Virus record (IMG/VR): IMGVR_UViG_3300037467_003067
Location: 224,001 to 288,000 of that record
Direction: 5' to 3' (one strand)
Origin: a virus
Taxonomy: Duplodnaviria; Caudoviricetes
Length of the DNA: 64,000 nucleotides
The notes under the pieces are model-generated. The model had not been told where the DNA came from and did no database searches. It saw only the letters and a list, made by a program, of their open reading frames with translations. The position numbers and the translations under genes were made by a program. Shown here piece after piece: positions 2,922 through 64,000 of the stretch (positions are counted from its first letter, which is position 1; every line of letters starts with the position of its first letter).

Positions 2922-3629
2922 ATGCGGAAGGACTTCGACAAGGTTTTGCGAGAGCCGGGACGGGCTGAGAAGGACGTTCGATCAAAATATGGTAGAAAAT
3001 CAAATCACTCGATCGAGGACCGAGAGGCTTTTCGACGTCGTGGTTTTTATGGGCAGAGCGGCGGGATGGTCAGGCTCCAGCCCAACTGCCGGTTCCTCCG
3101 GAAGAAGTGCGGACAGAAATGGGACGAGGTTTATGCCGAGATCTGCGAGGTGAATGACATCCGCTCCCATCCGAGACCGTACATCTTTGAATTCATTGAG
3201 AAGTACGTCGAGTTGAGTCCGCTCATTCTGGACGACGGCGTCTATGACGCCTCGGGGCGACTCAATATCTATGGCGGGAATATCCCTCATTTCTATGTCG
3301 ATGCCGAGGGGATTTTGCGGGTCGGCGAAGAGCCTCCTAGGCAGAAAAAGAAAGGGAAGCCCGAAGATTACGTCGTGCTGGACGAATACCACCAGTATCA
3401 TCAGGTCAAAGGCATTTGGTATTTGGTGACCTTCGCGCCGTGGCAAGGCGGCAAACCAATTGATATTCTCACAGGAAATCAACTCGTCAACGACAGTGGA
3501 TTGATCGGACGCTACGGAGCGAGGATCTACGCGATTGCCAAGCGCCAGGCGAACAAGAAGGAAGTCAAGTGGATCAAGCGAAAGCTCGATGAGAAATTGC
3601 GACGGACCGAGGAAGTGAACGCGGAATAA
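2922..3629 (+). CDS. hypothetical basic phage protein
   Basis: 235-aa ORF, GGAG RBS, genome-typical codon usage; promoter-like TAGACA-18-TAGAAT at 2843-2872. Confidence 0.75.
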   Translation: MRKDFDKVLREPGRAEKDVRSKYGRKSNHSIEDREAFRRRGFYGQSGGMVRLQPNCRFLRKKCGQKWDEVYAEICEVNDIRSHPRPYIFEFIEKYVELSPLILDDGVYDASGRLNIYGGNIPHFYVDAEGILRVGEEPPRQKKKGKPEDYVVLDEYHQYHQVKGIWYLVTFAPWQGGKPIDILTGNQLVNDSGLIGRYGARIYAIAKRQANKKEVKWIKRKLDEKLRRTEEVNAE

Positions 3630-3672
3630 CGAAGAGATGATTTTTACCGCCTAAAACGTTCCGAAATTAAGG

Positions 3673-3701
3673 TTGCCATACAGGTCCTTTTGCGGTATAC
3701 T
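3673..3701 (+). promoter_or_regulatory. sigma70-type promoter TTGCCA-17-TATACT
   Basis: Consensus-like hexamers with 17-bp spacer upstream of the ygiB/ygiC-like pair. Confidence 0.65.
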
Positions 3702-3760
3702 GATCCTATCAATACAAGTGTTTGATCGGATCTAAACGTCTTCTCGCAGGGATGGATTTC

Positions 3761-4258
3761 ATGGACGAAAACTTTCGCCGCAAGGCTTCGCGGGTCGTCA
3801 AGCTAGCCGTGATCGGTACTCCTTTGTTCTTCGGGGGTTGCTACGGAGTTTCTGACACGGTGGTTATCGAACGCCGTGCTGCCGACCGAGTCGAAGTGGT
3901 CGAGGTCGCTCGACCTGGCTATCACTACAGCTACTTCTACGGCGGGTATGTTCCCATTTACGTGCCGCTTGGCGGGTACGTGGGACCGGGGTACTACTCC
4001 AGCGGTTATCGCCCGCCTCGCACGGTTGTCAACAATTACATCAGCACACACCGCACGAGCGTGGTCCGTCAACCGACCACGAGGACGACGACCACCACGA
4101 CGACCACTCGTCCTGCTGCGACCACCACTTCTCGCCCAACAACCACGGTCACTTCCTCGCGAACCTCTGTCTCCAGTGGTTCGACCCGAGCGACGACTTC
4201 GGTCCGGACGGGCGGTTTCGGTGCGACTGGTCGCGGTAGTTTCCACGTCGGCGGCTGA
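3761..4258 (+). CDS. YgiB/YjfM (DUF1190)-like putative lipoprotein
   Basis: Hydrophobic segment ending FFGGC; Tyr/Gly-rich then Thr-rich linker; C-terminal RTGGFG motif; directly upstream of ygiC-like gene. Confidence 0.65.
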   Translation: MDENFRRKASRVVKLAVIGTPLFFGGCYGVSDTVVIERRAADRVEVVEVARPGYHYSYFYGGYVPIYVPLGGYVGPGYYSSGYRPPRTVVNNYISTHRTSVVRQPTTRTTTTTTTTRPAATTTSRPTTTVTSSRTSVSSGSTRATTSVRTGGFGATGRGSFHVGG

Positions 4259-4409
4259 CATTAAGGGAAATCATGAGGGTCAACGATGACCCTCGTGATA
4301 ACCACAGCGACGTGGTCCGAGACGAAGTCGTCTCATCATAATCTAAATCAAAACGTGAACTTGAACTTGAACGTCAGCGAAACATTTGCCTCCTGTAGGA
4401 CCAATTTCC

Positions 4410-24206: not shown

Positions 24207-24941
24207 CTAAACGAATTCCTGAGGGAACTTGGTGCGGAATTCGGCTTGGGTCTCGGGGGTGATGTCCTTCACGTAGATCGCGAGGTCGATAGCCGAGAAG
24301 TATTCGGCTATTTTTAGGTCCTGAAAGGCGGCACGGCAGAACGGCGACATCAGAACGTAATAGGGGCTGACCTTACCCAAGACCACCCATCGCCTGAGGT
24401 TGTTCGTCTTGACCATATCGACGACATCGGACTTCGACGGCGACGGGTTGTAGAACCGGGAGAGGAACGTCTTGGTCCGATCGAGGTCTTGCGCGATCTT
24501 GAACAGGGGAGTTCGTTCCTCTACCTCCCGCTGCTGGTTCTGTTCGCGTTTTGCGACCTCGTATTTCCGACGCCAGATCTTCCACCTGACCCACGCCTTC
24601 TCACCGCACAGGCACACGGGATCGATCAGGACATGCGAACCATTGGGTCGCTTGATCCCTTTGAGTATCTCAAGCTGCGCACGGATATAGTGAACGAGGT
24701 CGGCTTCTTCGAGGACGCCTTTGGTTTCCCTGAGGAGTTTCCAAGCGATCTTGAAGAGGTGGCACTTGCGAGGGTCGCCGTCTTTTGGTAATCTTGAATA
24801 CTTGTAATCAGGCAATATCTTCTGGCACATCTTCATCCAGATCAGGCATACCTTGAACGCCTTTGCCTCTTGCTCAGTCATCTTGTAATCGAAAATCGGC
24901 TCAAGAGAGAACATGTTTTCTTCTGGTTCCTTAGATGCCAT
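24207..24941 (-). CDS. hypothetical phage protein
   Basis: 244-aa ORF; ATAAATA 8 nt upstream. Confidence 0.8.
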   Translation of the reverse strand: MASKEPEENMFSLEPIFDYKMTEQEAKAFKVCLIWMKMCQKILPDYKYSRLPKDGDPRKCHLFKIAWKLLRETKGVLEEADLVHYIRAQLEILKGIKRPNGSHVLIDPVCLCGEKAWVRWKIWRRKYEVAKREQNQQREVEERTPLFKIAQDLDRTKTFLSRFYNPSPSKSDVVDMVKTNNLRRWVVLGKVSPYYVLMSPFCRAAFQDLKIAEYFSAIDLAIYVKDITPETQAEFRTKFPQEFV

Positions 24942-25005
24942 AATGCTTGTATTTATCTGTCTCAGTATAGCAAAATCATTTAGAAATAAAAGGTCAAAAA
25001 ATGCC

Positions 25006-25034
25006 TTGACATTAGTTACTTAATATGGTAAATT
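25006..25034 (+). promoter_or_regulatory. sigma70-type promoter TTGACA-17-TAAATT with extended TG
   Basis: Perfect -35, 17-bp spacer, TGg before -10. Confidence 0.75.
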
Positions 25035-25040
25035 CCTCCT

Positions 25041-25420
25041 CAGACTTCTTTATGGAGTTTGTAGGTCTAACTCAGTAAGCGAAAAACGACCACCATAAAA
25101 ATTCTCGTAATAAGCAATTAAATAAATTATTGCTGACGCTTTGTCGATGTGGTCTTTAAGCGTGCTTCTGAATAATGCAAGCATATTCTTGCAGATAGCT
25201 GTGCCCACTGGTTTACGTCGGACCAGCATTCTAGATGTGTGATAATTTAAATCCAGGCAACGTGTAACCTCACGACCTGGTGGGTAATACGAAACACACT
25301 GCTAGGACAGCTTAAGATTCTACCTGGACTTGGGACCTAGAACTTTACTAGGAATTACCCATAAAGGCGACGGTCTATATAGAGACCAGAATTTACTAAG
25401 TATCAAATGGATTTGAGTAG
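25041..25420 (+). ncRNA. candidate large structured non-coding RNA (unknown family)
   Basis: ORF-free 485-bp gap; more than 10 nested complementary segments and an 8-bp pseudoknot (tgggtaat 25281/attaccca 25354); promoter directly upstream. Confidence 0.6.
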
Positions 25421-25426
25421 TTAATC

Positions 25427-26293
25427 ATGGCATTATTTCGCTATCCAGGTTGTAAGGGCAAGGTCTCCAAAGTCATCTCAACTTCTCTGGCAAAATACGC
25501 TGAAGATCATCCTGAGGCTGAATACCGTGAGCCGTTCTTCGGAGCCGGTGGCATCGGATTTGAGTTGCTAAAAAATGAATACCCCGAAAAGGTCTGGTTC
25601 AATGATCGTGACCTCACGATCTGTGCCGTATGGAATTCGATCTATCAGAACCCCGAGGAATTGAAGGAACGACTTGAGGCATTCACCCCTTCGGTCGATG
25701 CCTATTTTGAATTCAAGGAATTTTTGCTGAAGATTTCGGAACCTGGTGATCTAGATAACTACCCACTCACAGAAATCGCCTTCAAGAAAATCGCCTGCCA
25801 TCAGATGTCTTATTCGGGTCTTGGAACCAAGGCGGGCGGTCCCATCGGGGGCGTCGGACAAAAAAGTAACTATGGCGTCGGTTGCCGCTATAGCGTCAAA
25901 ACCCTTTTCAAGAACATCGCCAAGATTCGGGAATTAATTCAGCATCGCTTCACACATCAGACTGATTTCTGTACAGCATTGGATTTTGAAGAAGTTATCC
26001 ATGACCAGTCGTGTCCTGCGTTCCTTTACCTCGACCCTCCCTACTACGAGAAAGGTCCGGACCTCTACCAGTTCAGCTTTGACCAAAGCGACCATGAGCG
26101 CCTGGCTGTCGCCCTCAAAGGTTGCCAGCATCCCTGGCTGCTGTCCTACGATGATCATCCCGAGGTGGTCCGGCTCTACGAGGGATGGGCTGTCATAAGT
26201 ACCTTAAATTTCACTTACACTATCAATGCTAAGAATGGCGGAGTTAAGAAGCGTGAGTTACTGATCGGCAGTCCCGGATGGGAAGGAATCTGA
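25427..26293 (+). CDS. Dam-like (D12 class) N6-adenine DNA methyltransferase
   Basis: FRYPGCK, EPFFGAGG, ND, YLDPPYY, WLLSYDD. Confidence 0.92.
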   Translation: MALFRYPGCKGKVSKVISTSLAKYAEDHPEAEYREPFFGAGGIGFELLKNEYPEKVWFNDRDLTICAVWNSIYQNPEELKERLEAFTPSVDAYFEFKEFLLKISEPGDLDNYPLTEIAFKKIACHQMSYSGLGTKAGGPIGGVGQKSNYGVGCRYSVKTLFKNIAKIRELIQHRFTHQTDFCTALDFEEVIHDQSCPAFLYLDPPYYEKGPDLYQFSFDQSDHERLAVALKGCQHPWLLSYDDHPEVVRLYEGWAVISTLNFTYTINAKNGGVKKRELLIGSPGWEGI

Positions 26294-26295
26294 CA

Positions 26296-26415
26296 ATGTT
26301 CTTGATCAATGTTTCGATAGGCGTCGGAGCATTCCTCGGTTTCATATTCGCGATCTATCTGGTCGCATGGGTCGTAGAGAAGATTGGGCATCACACATGG
26401 AAAACCAGGCAGTAA
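26296..26415 (+). CDS. 39-aa single-TM protein (below ORF-track cutoff)
   Basis: MFLINVSIGVGAFLGFIFAIYLVAWVVEKIGHHTWKTRQ; AAGGA RBS. Confidence 0.5.
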   Translation: MFLINVSIGVGAFLGFIFAIYLVAWVVEKIGHHTWKTRQ

Positions 26416-27704
26416 CGCAGGATCGAGTGGTCATAGCACAGAACTTGCACAAGACCGTCAATGGTGTGCCTGTCGTCTACCTGAAGCTCAACCCGGAATA
26501 TCCCGACTTCACTGCACATGCCCCCGGAACGATCGAGGTCATGTCGCCCCATGGAAAGACCTCGATTCCATTTGACCGGCACACGATCTGGGACGCGATG
26601 AGCCTGCTCGAAGTCGCCGTGTTTGACGAGATCGTGATCGCCTGGAACTTCAAGAACTTGGCGACTTATGCCCGACACCATATGAAGCGGATTGGCAAGT
26701 TCGATTTCAAATTGCTCGACCTGAAGCTGATCGAGGCATTCTGCGGCAAGAGGGGCGAGAAGTCCCCTGAGAGCTTCCAGGACGCCCAGAGGCGGATGGT
26801 CGAGGCGGCAACCAATACAAGCTGGAAGCGCGTCCACGAGGGCATTCACTTGCCCCTGGCGAAGCGCGTGGTTCCAGCCTTGGAATGCGAGGGCATCATC
26901 GACACGATCGGTCGTCGGACGGTCTATGCGAGCTACGAGATCGACTGGACGGTGACCGGGAGGATGGCGTGTCGGCTCATGACCAGGGGGTACAGCCCGC
27001 ACGCCGACTGCAATTCGGCACGTTACAAGCCTCGCGGCGAGGAGGAAGTCGTGGTCTACTTCGATTACCGCGCCATGGAAGTCGGGATGATCCAGTGGCT
27101 TTCCGGCGACGAGGAACTGAAATCTCTGTTGAATTCAGGTCAAGATGTCTACGAGGGGTCCTGGTACAAGTTGACGAACCTGACCAACATGCCCAAGGAC
27201 TGGAAGCTGAGTTTCCTCGCCTACTTCTTCGGCATGGGGGCTGAGGCGATGTCGGCACGGCATGGCTGGTCGCTTGAGGTCAGCAAGGAGATGATGTCGA
27301 GGATGAGCAAGGTGTTCTCATCGGCATCTAGCTACCTCAGGGAGGTCAGGAAGCAGGCTGGCAACGAGGTGGTTAAGGATTTCTTCGGGCGACCACGGGA
27401 CTGTCGCAACGAGCCGCACAAAGCGCAGAATTTCGTGATCCAGTCCCCGGCGAGCATCGTCTGCCTGGAGAAGATGATCCAGCTTCACGACAACTGCCCG
27501 GCGTTCTCCCGCCCGGCATTCCATGTTCACGACGGATGCGCCTTGATCTGCGATGTCAAGGTGGTCCGAGAGGTCTGTAGGCAAGCGTTGGCGATTCTCG
27601 AATCCGAGAGCGCGTTCTGTCCCGGAATCCGACTCAAGGCGTCAGCCAAGGTCGGCAAGCATTTTGGCAATAAGATCCTGATTCCCGAAGAGTGGAGGGT
27701 GTGA
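26397..27704 (+). CDS. compact, divergent family A DNA polymerase-like protein
   Basis: TVTGRM; motif A FDYRAMEV..LSGD; motif B K.....FFGMG; AQNFVIQS; motif C HVHDG. Confidence 0.8.
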   Translation: MENQAVTQDRVVIAQNLHKTVNGVPVVYLKLNPEYPDFTAHAPGTIEVMSPHGKTSIPFDRHTIWDAMSLLEVAVFDEIVIAWNFKNLATYARHHMKRIGKFDFKLLDLKLIEAFCGKRGEKSPESFQDAQRRMVEAATNTSWKRVHEGIHLPLAKRVVPALECEGIIDTIGRRTVYASYEIDWTVTGRMACRLMTRGYSPHADCNSARYKPRGEEEVVVYFDYRAMEVGMIQWLSGDEELKSLLNSGQDVYEGSWYKLTNLTNMPKDWKLSFLAYFFGMGAEAMSARHGWSLEVSKEMMSRMSKVFSSASSYLREVRKQAGNEVVKDFFGRPRDCRNEPHKAQNFVIQSPASIVCLEKMIQLHDNCPAFSRPAFHVHDGCALICDVKVVREVCRQALAILESESAFCPGIRLKASAKVGKHFGNKILIPEEWRV

Positions 27705-28490: not shown

Positions 28491-29171
28491 GTGGTCGAAA
28501 AATTTGAGGAGTTTGTGATGAGTTACGATTATTCGGGTTACGGTTGGATCAAGGTTAAGAGATTCACCTTTGATGAAAACAAAGGTCTTAAAGACAACTA
28601 TGATGCTCTCGACAAACATCATATCGAAGAGACCACTTTCTTGATCAACGAAGTGCGAAAGTTAGCAGCAATCCTCAATGAGAAAGATCGCAGTTCCAAG
28701 CAATACTGTGTCGGAGTGGTCAATACTTCGGGAGCGAAAGTGTATTATGCGGGGCGTGATTATTTTGCTGACATTCCATTGTGGACGTCTAACATAAATT
28801 CGGCAATGAAGTACGCCCATAATATCGCTCTTGAAGAATGTGAACAATGGAATGCCAAGTTGAAGTCGAATTTCTTGTCGTATCACGTAGTCGAATTTGA
28901 ACCAAATGGCGTTGATCAATCCGCTGGCTACCACACCAAGCCTATCGCCAAGGGCGTCCTCGGAGAAGTCTCCAAGATCGAAGAGGAGTTGGAGGAATTC
29001 AAGGACGCCCTTGCCCAAGACTGCAAGGTCATGGCTCTGGTCGAATTGTCGGACATGGTCGGGGCGATCAAAGCCTACCTCGACAAGAACCATCCCGAAC
29101 TTTCTCTGGGTGACCTCGAACGGATGGCTCAGATCACTAAGCGTGCCTTTAATTCGGGAGCGAGGAAGTGA
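28491..29171 (+). CDS. multi-module protein with C-terminal MazG-like (all-alpha NTP pyrophosphatase) domain
   Basis: KIEEELEEFKDA..LVELSDMVGA (ExxE..ExxD). Confidence 0.6.
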   Translation: MVEKFEEFVMSYDYSGYGWIKVKRFTFDENKGLKDNYDALDKHHIEETTFLINEVRKLAAILNEKDRSSKQYCVGVVNTSGAKVYYAGRDYFADIPLWTSNINSAMKYAHNIALEECEQWNAKLKSNFLSYHVVEFEPNGVDQSAGYHTKPIAKGVLGEVSKIEEELEEFKDALAQDCKVMALVELSDMVGAIKAYLDKNHPELSLGDLERMAQITKRAFNSGARK

Positions 29172-29944
29172 TCATCTCCTATCGAAAATTGGTCAAGGCT
29201 TTGGAATTCTATCGATCCAGAGGCTTCGGGTATATCGATGTTCCCTGGATCGTGGGTGACGAGTCTTATGGTGTGACCAAGCCTGCCAACTCACGAGATT
29301 TCTCGACCTTTGCCGGGAATCTCGTAGCTTCCGGCGAGCAGTCGTTCCTGGATAAGATGCTGGCTGGAAAAATGCCTTACGGCAGGTCCGCCTGTATCAC
29401 GCCTTGCTTCCGCGACGAACTAGTTCAAGACCAATTCCATCTCCAATATTTCATGAAGGTGGAACTGATCTATTTCGGCAAAGAAGAGAGATTGGCTCGC
29501 GAATTGGATACAATGATCGAACACGCCAGGCAGTTCTTCTCGCAATACTTAGGATTAGAGAACATCCAGAGGGTTGAGACGCCCGAAGGCGTCGACCTCA
29601 TGTCCCAAGGTATTGAACTTGGGTCTTACGGGATTAGACGGTATAAGAACTATGCTTGGGTCTACGGCACGGGCTGTGCTGAGCAGAGGCTCTCCCAGGT
29701 GATCAGGGCATCCAAGATCAACAATCTTAGGTGGAATCTTGGCGTTTTGGACGGCAAACCGATCTGGCGGATGAATTTGGAGAATGAGATTGGTGCTTTT
29801 GTCGTACAAGAAGACCAAGGTTGGCGGTACGAGGCGTGGTGCCTGCAGACCAACAACATGATTTTCAGCAAGACAGGCAATAATCTTGAAGAGTGCAAGG
29901 AGATCGTGGAAGGTTGCATACGCGGTGAATTATGTGTAATTTGA
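29168..29944 (+). CDS. class II aminoacyl-tRNA synthetase-like catalytic core (no anticodon domain)
   Basis: LVASGEQ; motif 2 TPCFRDE..FMKVEL; IELGSYG; motif 3 YGTGCAEQR. Confidence 0.75.
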   Translation: MIISYRKLVKALEFYRSRGFGYIDVPWIVGDESYGVTKPANSRDFSTFAGNLVASGEQSFLDKMLAGKMPYGRSACITPCFRDELVQDQFHLQYFMKVELIYFGKEERLARELDTMIEHARQFFSQYLGLENIQRVETPEGVDLMSQGIELGSYGIRRYKNYAWVYGTGCAEQRLSQVIRASKINNLRWNLGVLDGKPIWRMNLENEIGAFVVQEDQGWRYEAWCLQTNNMIFSKTGNNLEECKEIVEGCIRGELCVI

Positions 29945-62256: not shown

Positions 62257-64000
62257 ATGGATAGCTTGACGACGAAGACCGCGACGGCCCAGACGGATTT
62301 CCTGAACGAGTTTCTCGGTGAAGGGAACAAGGACGAGTTCCAGATCCTCAACGAGGAGATGTCCTACGCTGAGTACATTCAGCGGGTCCAGGAGAATCCT
62401 CGGTGGGAGCGGAGTGCTCACCAGCGGGTCTACGACATGATCATGGATGCGGGGTCGAAGACCTTCGTGAAGTATCGCAAGACCCTGACCCATTACAACT
62501 TCTTCGACAACGGCGAGGAAGCGATCTTCGGTCTCGACGAGACGCTCCACGAACTCGTCCAGCATTTCCGGGGGGCGGCAGGACACTTCGGGACTGAGAA
62601 GCGTATCCTTCTCCTCCACGGTCCGGTCGGCTCTTCCAAGAGCACGATCTGCCGCGCCCTGAAGCGGGGCATGGAAGACTACAGCCGCACGGACGGCGGG
62701 GCGTGGTATACCTACAAGTGGGTCGACCTCCCGACTGGTCCCGATGGCGTTTACAACAAGGAGACCGAGTTGGCGGCGATGTTCGAGTCGCCCCTGCACT
62801 TCCTGCCTCCCGATCGCCGGAAGCACCTCTACGCTCGCCTGAACGAGGTCATGCTGGAGCAGGTCCCTGCCGCCGACCGGACCAGCCAGTACACCTTGGT
62901 CCCTGAAGGGGAGTTGAATCCTCGCTCGAAGTTCTTCCTGAACTTCTTGCTCGCCAAGTACGACGGCGACCTCGCCAAGGTGTTGAACAACCACGTCCGC
63001 GTCGTGCGGATGGTCTACAGCGAAGCCGATCGCGTCGGCATCGGCACGTTCCAGCCGAAGGACGAGAAGAACCAGGACGCGACCGAACTGACCGGTGACG
63101 TCGATTTCGCCCAACTGAACTACTTCGGGAGCGATTCCGACCCCCGTGCGTTCAGCTATAACGGCGAGTTTAACATCTCCAACCGGGGCGTCTTCGAATG
63201 CATCGAGATGCTCAAGCTGGACAAGGAGTTCCTGTACGACTTCCTCGGTGCCTCCCAGGAACACGCGATCAAGCCGAAGAAGGCTCCGCAGGTGACGATC
63301 GACGAGGTGATCATCGGTCACACCAACAACCCCGAGTACGAGAAGCTGATCAACGATCCGACGATGGAAGCGTTTCGCGACCGTACCGTCAAGATCGACG
63401 TGCCGTACCAACTCCAACTCTCGAACGAGATCCGGATCTACCAGCGTGACTACGGCAAGGGTCGGGTGCGTCAGCACGTCGCTCCCCACACGCTGGAAAC
63501 GGCGGCTCTCTTCGCCGTCATGACCCGTCTCCAGGACGACAAGGACGGCAAGCTCGACCTCGCCGACAAGGTCAAGCTCTACGACGGCAAGGCTCTCCCC
63601 GGCTATACCGAGGACATGGTCAAGGAGTTCCGGGACAAGTCGGTCGGCGAGGGGATGAAGTGGGGTCTCAGCCCCCGATTCATCCAGGACCAGATCAGCG
63701 CCACCCTGAGCGAGCGGCACGATTACATCAACCCGTTCATGGTCCTTGCCAAGCTCAAGGACAAGCTGCACACCAGCAGCCTGATCACCAACAAGGAGGA
63801 CGTCGCCAAGTACGAGGTCTGCATCGACAAGGCGATCAAGGAGTTGAACAACATCCTCAAGACCGAAGTCCAGAAGGCTCTGGTCTCGGATGAGAACGCC
63901 ATCATCCGGCTCTGCAGCAAGTACATCGACAACCTCATGGCGTACATCGAGGAACGCAAGGTCATCAACCCCTTCACCAAGGCTGACCAGGAGCCCGATG
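62257..64000 (+). CDS. prkA: PrkA/YeaG family AAA+ serine protein kinase (runs off window; absent from ORF track)
   Basis: Translated by hand: SAHQRVYDMI..IFGLDE..KRILLLHGPVGSSKSTI..GIGTFQPKDEKNQDATELTG..DPRAFSYNGE..NRG..EMLK..IIGHTN..EAFRDR. Confidence 0.93.
   Translation, partial: MDSLTTKTATAQTDFLNEFLGEGNKDEFQILNEEMSYAEYIQRVQENPRWERSAHQRVYDMIMDAGSKTFVKYRKTLTHYNFFDNGEEAIFGLDETLHELVQHFRGAAGHFGTEKRILLLHGPVGSSKSTICRALKRGMEDYSRTDGGAWYTYKWVDLPTGPDGVYNKETELAAMFESPLHFLPPDRRKHLYARLNEVMLEQVPAADRTSQYTLVPEGELNPRSKFFLNFLLAKYDGDLAKVLNNHVRVVRMVYSEADRVGIGTFQPKDEKNQDATELTGDVDFAQLNYFGSDSDPRAFSYNGEFNISNRGVFECIEMLKLDKEFLYDFLGASQEHAIKPKKAPQVTIDEVIIGHTNNPEYEKLINDPTMEAFRDRTVKIDVPYQLQLSNEIRIYQRDYGKGRVRQHVAPHTLETAALFAVMTRLQDDKDGKLDLADKVKLYDGKALPGYTEDMVKEFRDKSVGEGMKWGLSPRFIQDQISATLSERHDYINPFMVLAKLKDKLHTSSLITNKEDVAKYEVCIDKAIKELNNILKTEVQKALVSDENAIIRLCSKYIDNLMAYIEERKVINPFTKADQEPD

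Follow-up and report, generated by a model that had tools for sequence, protein, structure and literature searches.

The RNA, its promoter and its fold

The window analysed here is a 64-kb stretch of viral DNA (64,000 nucleotides; positions 224,001 to 288,000 of IMG/VR record IMGVR_UViG_3300037467_003067), part of a 298.6-kb record that is classed as a provirus and has the gene content of a jumbo phage. A gap of 485 bp free of open reading frames (ORFs), at 24942-25426, separates a divergent 244-aa ORF from a D12 methyltransferase gene. The initial annotation of this locus had proposed a large pseudoknotted non-coding RNA with its own promoter, in a gap opening just after TTGACA-17-TAAATT. Promoter and gap length agreed with this description, with the correction that the promoter sits within the gap. 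The RNA was borne out by homologous copies, in which ten helices are kept with covariation; on this comparative evidence a conserved, multi-domain, pseudoknotted RNA of ~350 nt is confirmed as real.

The promoter, strong and of the host (sigma-70) type, combines TTGACA, a 17-nt spacer, TG ahead of the -10 box and TAAATT, and places the predicted transcription start at ~25041. The limits of the unit are as follows.

25006-25034, plus strand: sigma-70-type promoter (-35 box 25006-25011, -10 box 25029-25034; 10/12 matches in a promoter scan)
~25041-25392, plus strand: the conserved RNA, whole, ~350 nt (from the DNA match to records G001 and G002, the covariance model R1 and the covariation test, all described below)
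25362-25392, plus strand: conserved purine-rich 3' tail, where similarity to the other lineages stops (alignments)

Five lineages carry the RNA: the window, the pair L009/L010, L064, L069 and L002. The first homologs came from contigs encoding relatives of the polymerase or methylase found downstream in the window, and L009/L010 from a pattern scan of IMG/VR. In L009 (record G001, 253 kb) and L010 (record G002, 195 kb) the RNA is 93-99% identical to that of the window. L064 holds a full-length copy of 65% identity between a methylase (59% identical) and a 245-aa ORF at the position matching the divergent 244-aa ORF of the window. The copy in L002/L003 (~59% identical) lies directly 5' of a methylase gene (65% identical) and is cut at the contig end; that in L069 (~48% identical, methylase 55%) is cut at its 5' end. 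Three further loci, L065-L067, are the window's own phage in other samples. Covariance model R1, built from the window and L009, scored 145 bits on L064, 68 on L002 and 29 on L069, and gave no score in 30 other loci.

The L009 copy contains the promoter of the window, and L064 has a promoter of its own (11/12 matches) with other letters at the equivalent position. RNA and following gene are co-oriented in all five lineages. The next start codon lies ~35-100 nt 3' of the RNA on the same strand, after a spacer that varies between lineages and is unconserved in the alignments, and no intrinsic terminator was detected between the two in the window, L064, L009 or L002. Because every lineage lacks a terminator and the start codon is so close on the same strand, the RNA would form the first part of the operon transcript.

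The elements of the fold, in window coordinates, are listed from 5' to 3', with the two pseudoknot strands last.

25041-48/25054-61, plus: 5'-terminal hairpin of 8 pairs, 2 of them G-U, with a counterpart of only 4 bp in L064; weakly supported
25072-25171, plus: domain 1, an irregular stem of three helices split by large, highly conserved internal loops
25072-80/25164-71, plus: domain 1 outer helix, pairing in three lineages (window, L064, L069) that each have other letters; 4 pairs with double changes
25088-93/25149-54, plus: domain 1 middle helix, paired in the same three lineages with different letters
25113-18/25129-34, plus: domain 1 inner helix, likewise paired in these three with different letters
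25176-81/25188-93 (25176-25193), plus: interdomain hairpin, four different stems, all paired; 6/6 pairs changed on both sides
25197-25312, plus: domain 2, a closing helix around a hairpin, two stacked helices and a two-part hairpin
25197-202/25307-12, plus: domain 2 closing helix, four versions; 6/6 pairs compensatory
25208-12/25222-26, plus: domain 2 first hairpin, four versions; 5/5 pairs compensatory
25231-34/25302-05, plus: domain 2 stacked helix, three versions, absent in L064; 3/4 pairs compensatory
25237-41/25295-99, plus: domain 2 stacked helix, four versions; 4/5 pairs compensatory
25253-57/25276-80, plus: outer stem of the last hairpin of domain 2, invariant and hence neither for nor against
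25261-64/25271-74, plus: inner stem of the same hairpin, four versions; 3/4 pairs compensatory
25313-25353, plus: variable stretch with both candidate 3' strands of the closing stem and a lineage-specific hairpin; the window and L009 differ strongly only here
25281-25288, plus: pseudoknot 5' strand, inside domain 2 directly after the invariant hairpin, pairing with 25354-25361
25354-25361, plus: pseudoknot 3' strand, outside domain 2, ~65 nt 3' of its partner

Every pairing proposed in the initial annotation exists in the window sequence. Ten of its 15 elements, the crossing pair included, gained support from compensatory changes; the closing stem and two 3' hairpins were not confirmed, the 5' hairpin proved weak, and one stem of domain 2 is invariant. 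The helices of domain 1 were found independently by the minimum free energy (MFE) fold of each homolog. Two loops are conserved as well, a 6-nt CAYAUU in the interdomain hairpin and YAACC in the last hairpin of domain 2. The crossing helix exists in four unlike sequence versions, which form 8, 9, 10 and 8 perfect pairs. Three helices enclose its 5' strand but not its 3' strand, which makes it a true pseudoknot.

The proposed closing stem (25062-68/25333-39) exists in no lineage other than the window and its near-twin L009. For its 5' strand, L064 offers a different partner directly after domain 2, and the window can form the equivalent pairing at 25061-68/25315-23. We tentatively prefer this latter pairing as a candidate closing stem; it is only 69% paired, with one informative homolog. 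Towards the 3' end, a single other lineage keeps the hairpin 25372-76/25383-87; the one at 25403-08/25411-16, with a loop of 2 nt, falls beyond the conserved unit. The YAACC loop could pair with the 3' tail over 3-4 bp, both being invariant. An alternative partner for the pseudoknot 5' strand is present at 25203-07 and changes together with the other two strands in L069; this single event is a hint that the alternative pairing may act as a switch.

The statistical support for the fold comes chiefly from the homologs. In the covariation count, 94.5% of 362 cells were paired, compared with 34-42% when partners were slid by 1-3 columns, and 36/71 pairs had changed on both sides, compared with 2-7 when slid. 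None of 500 shuffles reached the observed values on any covariation measure. This count uses an alignment fitted to the first covariance model and leans towards nested helices. Domain 1 of L069 is misplaced in it, and L002 and L069 are off by one in the pseudoknot; a hand-made, script-checked helix table corrects both. The pseudoknot was paired in 90.5% of cells though absent from the model that made the alignment, and between 0 and 21 of 300 shuffles, depending on the lineage, reached the observed helix. Separate MFE folds of the homologs recovered 49/55, 37/55 (plus the whole pseudoknot), 53/60 and 33/40 comparative pairs. The MAFFT-only alignments A7 and A9 misalign helices of distant homologs; RNAalifold on A7 nevertheless reported 14 compensatory pairs.

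We also considered that no RNA is made from the gap at all, and that a small protein gene, DNA binding sites or chance complementarity account for the pattern. Such an explanation draws on the MFE z-score of the window alone, which is only -2.0 on the plus strand (matched by 3/100 shuffles) and again -2.0 on the minus strand, leaving the comparison with shuffled controls called for at the outset marginal and equal on both strands. It also draws on an 83-codon open stretch on the minus strand and on the rarity of G-U pairs (5 in ~330), through which the letters alone leave the strand undecided and the strand of the RNA is assigned mainly from the promoter. Against it, helices 60-110 nt apart stay paired through double changes, whereas DNA-binding palindromes would retain letters and not merely complementarity. 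As for a small protein gene, each frame holds 3-10 stops, and the minus-strand stretch changes frame in L064 and is not kept in L069 or L002. A micro-ORF in the 3' tail was rejected as well: its start codon is present in L064, L069 and L002 and missing from the window and L009. Absence of an RNA is thus scarcely tenable, and the comparisons show, at the level of sequence, that the selected product is an RNA fold, neither a peptide nor a DNA site.

Cassette transfer and genomic setting

Between 22000 and 29000 of the window (7 kb compared), G001 and G002 share only 25004-25385, at 94-98% DNA identity. The shared unit starts at the -35 box and finishes in the 3' tail. When the 40 kb around the G001 copy was set against the whole 298.6-kb genome, one distant protein and one 128-nt stretch were the only further similarities. 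In L009 the cassette lies directly after the hairpin that ends the upstream gene and ahead of different genes than in the window; it thus supplies the promoter for what follows. Near-identity of promoter and RNA (93-94% in G001) between entirely different flanks indicates that the unit moves and is selected as a self-contained cassette, and the alignments show its transfer as a unit between unrelated jumbo phages. The RNA is single copy in the 298.6-kb genome. Identity within the element is mosaic (~99% over the first 182-310 nt, followed by a divergent 40-nt stretch), which suggests recombination inside it.

The 128-nt stretch corresponds to window 63274-63401, within ORF 62257-63999 (plus strand), and matches L009:2591-3952 (minus strand) at 80% DNA identity (~45 aa at 46%), two genes upstream of the RNA in G001. 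Directly behind the G001 copy lies a 34-aa ORF (L009:916-1020, minus strand), whose AAGGA ribosome-binding site belongs to the 3' tail of the RNA and precedes the ATG by 7 nt; the product is strongly hydrophobic and apparently a single membrane helix. In L064 two back-to-back near-consensus promoters (1060-1118; 11/12 matches each) serve the RNA and the divergent 245-aa ORF.

In the window, the RNA lies among the following genes.

24207-24941, minus strand: divergent 244-aa ORF, left border of the gap; no match in Pfam, PHROGs, NCBIfam or PADLOC
25427-26293, plus strand: D12-class N6-adenine DNA methyltransferase (Pfam PF02086, E 2.4e-16), first gene 3' of the RNA
26367-27704, plus strand: compact family A DNA polymerase-like (PolA-like) protein of 445 aa (Pfam PF00476), second operon gene

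Same-strand genes continue from 25427 to at least 34429. A methyltransferase gene follows the RNA directly in the window, L064, L069 and L002; that of the window matches the PADLOC model PD-Lambda-5_B (E 2.9e-52) ahead of generic type II and orphan methylase models. The top PADLOC match of the PolA-like protein is the model RTasPolA (DRT; E 7.6e-15). Its family comprises 189 clusters at E≤1e-30 with members mostly of ~400-450 aa. Relatives of the polymerase neighbour NUDIX, MazG, DnaB-type helicase and Prim-Pol genes, which points to a phage replication module. One such distant module, in L007, is preceded by an 834-nt ORF-free divergent gap (3434-4266) with no match to the RNA model, which may hold a different element. 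Further along the window (28491-29944), a class II aminoacyl-tRNA-synthetase-like ORF of 258 aa (phrog_4806 'histidyl tRNA synthetase', E 2e-39; weak Pfam tRNA-synt_2) is overlapped at its start by a 226-aa ORF with a C-terminal match to a PHROG of unknown function.

Several other searches added no copies. Single-protein searches with the polymerase and methylase in genome and viral collections gave no confirmed relatives. The further methylase relatives L068 (79 nt of upstream sequence only) and L084 (another ORF directly upstream) yielded no RNA. All matches of a scan of metagenomes and genomes with a 19-base conserved block share at most 24 bases with the window, and seven are an unrelated WD40-like coding motif. 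The block concerned is a coincidental 21-23-nt match to the best-conserved junction of the RNA, in a WD40-like repeat-protein gene of Bryobacterales and other Acidobacteriota (L032, L037, L041, L044, L046, L048, L049 and L054), and is a trap for pattern searches on the RNA.

Contigs from different metagenome assemblies begin inside the RNA: the first positions of L002, L003, L061 and L062 all equal window 25142. L066 begins at window 25225, and L010 ends at 25241. Such breaks fit the expectation for a sequence common to co-occurring phage genomes, which would break the assembly graph.

Known families and candidate roles

None of the 4227 covariance models of Rfam 15 matched the whole 64-kb window at gathering score; these include RNase P, tmRNA, SRP, 6S, group I/II introns, GOLLD, ROOL, OLE, HEARO, raiA, pRNA and all riboswitch classes. 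At E≤10, the region 24900-25500 gave only four matches (E 2-7.5; 14-20 bits against thresholds of 42-100), and the RNA regions of L064, L069 and L062 gave nothing. ARAGORN found no tRNA or tmRNA in the window. The initial annotation had seen no tmRNA, RNase P or group I/II intron hallmarks and had proposed the Rfam check; both programs, and Rfam on the homologs also, agree with it. A group I intron was rejected on other grounds as well: the methyltransferase ORF is complete (Pfam match from residue 6), the upstream gene is on the opposite strand, and the promoter lies inside the conserved unit. The P3-P7 core of such introns gave no model match even at E≤10, and its crossing topology is loosely alike, as a resemblance only. 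The term 'ribozyme', if applied to the RNA, is a statement about size only. We found no description of the RNA in the literature, and an IMG/VR catalogue of candidate structured RNAs spans only 29-151 nt. From the sequence comparisons we rate the RNA as a new class, confirmed at the level of its structure.

Our best guess, tentatively held, is that the RNA opens an early operon as a structured leader acting in cis. Host RNA polymerase would transcribe it at an early stage of infection, at the 5' end of the operon transcript, and the leader would set how much transcript or expression continues downstream. Its means might be the binding of a protein or small ligand, protection of a long untranslated leader against Rho and RNases, or an action on the polymerase during transcription, and its function would be independent of which genes follow. 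HK022 put and other processive antitermination RNAs are alike in position only: they lie directly 3' of an early promoter, where a long co-directional operon begins, and their action does not depend on the genes that follow, as may be the case here. In contrast to put, which has ~70 nt and two simple stem-loops, the window RNA is five times larger and pseudoknotted. Riboswitches and protein-binding leaders (Rho-dependent riboswitches, the T4 gene 32 pseudoknot operator) likewise present a conserved, folded 5' untranslated domain with a pseudoknot. Unlike them, the RNA matches no aptamer class, is much larger than single aptamers, is followed by another gene in L009, and has neither an intrinsic terminator (four lineages) nor a helix sequestering the Shine-Dalgarno sequence; a Rho-dependent platform is possible.

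Several points weigh against a leader. An expression platform was not found: there is no terminator, no conserved pairing with ribosome-binding sites, and the spacer is unconserved. Transfer of promoter and RNA to a place before unrelated genes fits an independent RNA gene at least equally well, and the size and conservation of the RNA far exceed the needs of known leader devices. We infer its transcript start, 3' end and expression from sequence. Four to five lineages are too few for formal covariation statistics such as R-scape, and most of the alignment was fitted to the structure under test.

A close rival is that the RNA is a stand-alone, stable, trans-acting molecule, cut from the 5' end of the operon transcript and carried as a moron-like accessory gene. 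As a folded particle it might scaffold a protein, act as a ribozyme, assemble with itself, or serve as a decoy that counters a host factor or defence. Its promoter and RNA moved as a unit with sharp borders into an unrelated phage, it shows no pairing with downstream ribosome-binding sites, and contigs of several metagenomes break inside it. Its large size, several domains, pseudoknot and many invariant unpaired nucleotides make up a profile like that of OLE, GOLLD, ROOL and raiA and not of leaders (PMC12286853). Size, conservation and cassette transfer fit a processed trans-acting particle and a leader equally. Speaking for the leader and against a free RNA, no lineage has a terminator or a defined 3' end, the RNA is always close to and co-oriented with the next gene, and no protein gene common to the flanks of the copies presents itself as a partner. 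The initial annotation suggested that the RNA has a primer, origin or template role tied to the adjacent PolA-like polymerase, which would liken it to ColE1 RNA II or T7/T4 origin transcripts; this option fared worse and is highly improbable. Family A polymerases do extend RNA primers in ColE1 and T7. Like RNA II, the RNA is a promoter-driven, structured transcript of several hundred nucleotides beside a family A polymerase gene, and it heads a replication module in four lineages; its promoter lies in a divergent intergenic region. The association with the polymerase is not kept, however: the near-identical G001/G002 copy lies among unrelated genes, with no PolA-like gene in the examined parts of these records, and up to 10 kb of DNA upstream of the polymerase relatives L016 and L007 gave no match to the RNA model. 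Across the locus, GC skew climbs steadily, with no turn of the kind expected at an origin, and a covariation-kept pseudoknotted fold is not required of a primer. A selfish, mobile RNA-based element or its remnant, whose fold serves its own spread, would account for the sharp borders, the new flanks and the mosaic identity suggestive of recombination. We consider it improbable, since the genome has a single copy, four lineages keep the RNA at one syntenic place, and no intron or mobile-element RNA family matched. The alignments and gene tables showed no terminal repeats, target duplications or associated genes for a recombinase, reverse transcriptase or nuclease; no search aimed at these was made.

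The closest known company of the RNA is found among large RNAs defined by covariation. GOLLD and ROOL are large, ornate RNAs often found in phages and prophages, with structures reported in PMC12286853. The window RNA shares with them a large, multi-domain, pseudoknotted and phage-borne make-up, many conserved unpaired nucleotides and a biochemical function that is unknown. It differs in length (~350 nt compared with ~580 and 800 nt), in matching neither model and in setting: GOLLD and ROOL occur near tRNA genes, whereas the window RNA stands directly behind its own promoter at an operon head. OLE and raiA motif RNAs, which are large bacterial RNAs of unknown function, are of comparable structural complexity and have strongly conserved loops and junctions. 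They, in contrast, belong to the cells of Bacillota and Actinomycetota and have known partner proteins or phenotypes; the phage RNA matches neither model and has no partner gene close by.

A possible wider core motif

A well-supported fold with a long-range pseudoknot, its promoter and its transfer as a cassette together indicate strong selection on the RNA itself. As a leader, it would rank as a remarkably complex regulator of early transcription in the phage; as a free RNA, it would represent a new class of phage non-coding RNA. At ~350 nt, it can be cloned and taken into probing, ligand screens, cryo-EM and reporter assays. To our knowledge, large covarying RNAs with complex folds are rare, and nearly all that have been studied do something unusual (catalysis, RNP machines, RNA cages). 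Such RNAs are known from phages, which have been little mined for them, and a short core motif may connect a wider set of unannotated phage intergenic regions.

The candidate for such a motif is a module formed by the last hairpin of domain 2: an invariant CCAGG/CCUGG stem, an inner stem that covaries, and the YAACC loop. A scan for this module returned 11 distinct sequences, compared with 3 for the reversed pattern; that control had 67 loci but only these 3 distinct sequences, one prophage gene being present 66 times. In 8/11 module sequences the inner stem is paired though the pattern did not demand pairing. Conceivably, though we regard it as doubtful, the window RNA is the largest member of an unrecognised phage RNA class built around one pseudoknotted core. 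This core would consist of an outer helix, an A/U-rich joiner, the invariant two-part hairpin and a strand pairing far downstream across the outer helix. Were it a ligand- or protein-binding site or a catalytic centre acting as a free particle, it would define a new functional class of phage RNA comparable to GOLLD or ROOL.

Besides L009, the module occurs in seven unrelated IMG/VR phage contigs.

L071:7690-8420, minus strand: hairpin-module locus
L073:4340-4885, minus strand: hairpin-module locus
L074:2090-2505, plus strand: hairpin-module locus
L076:1-660, plus strand: hairpin-module locus
L079:9405-10400, minus strand: hairpin-module locus
L080:5070-5350, minus strand: hairpin-module locus
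L082:8050-8660, plus strand: hairpin-module locus

No Rfam family matched these seven loci at gathering score. Six of them allow the same outer helix and crossing pair, in a search that had freedom and with mixed individual significance. They lie mostly in ORF-free gaps of 250-700 nt.

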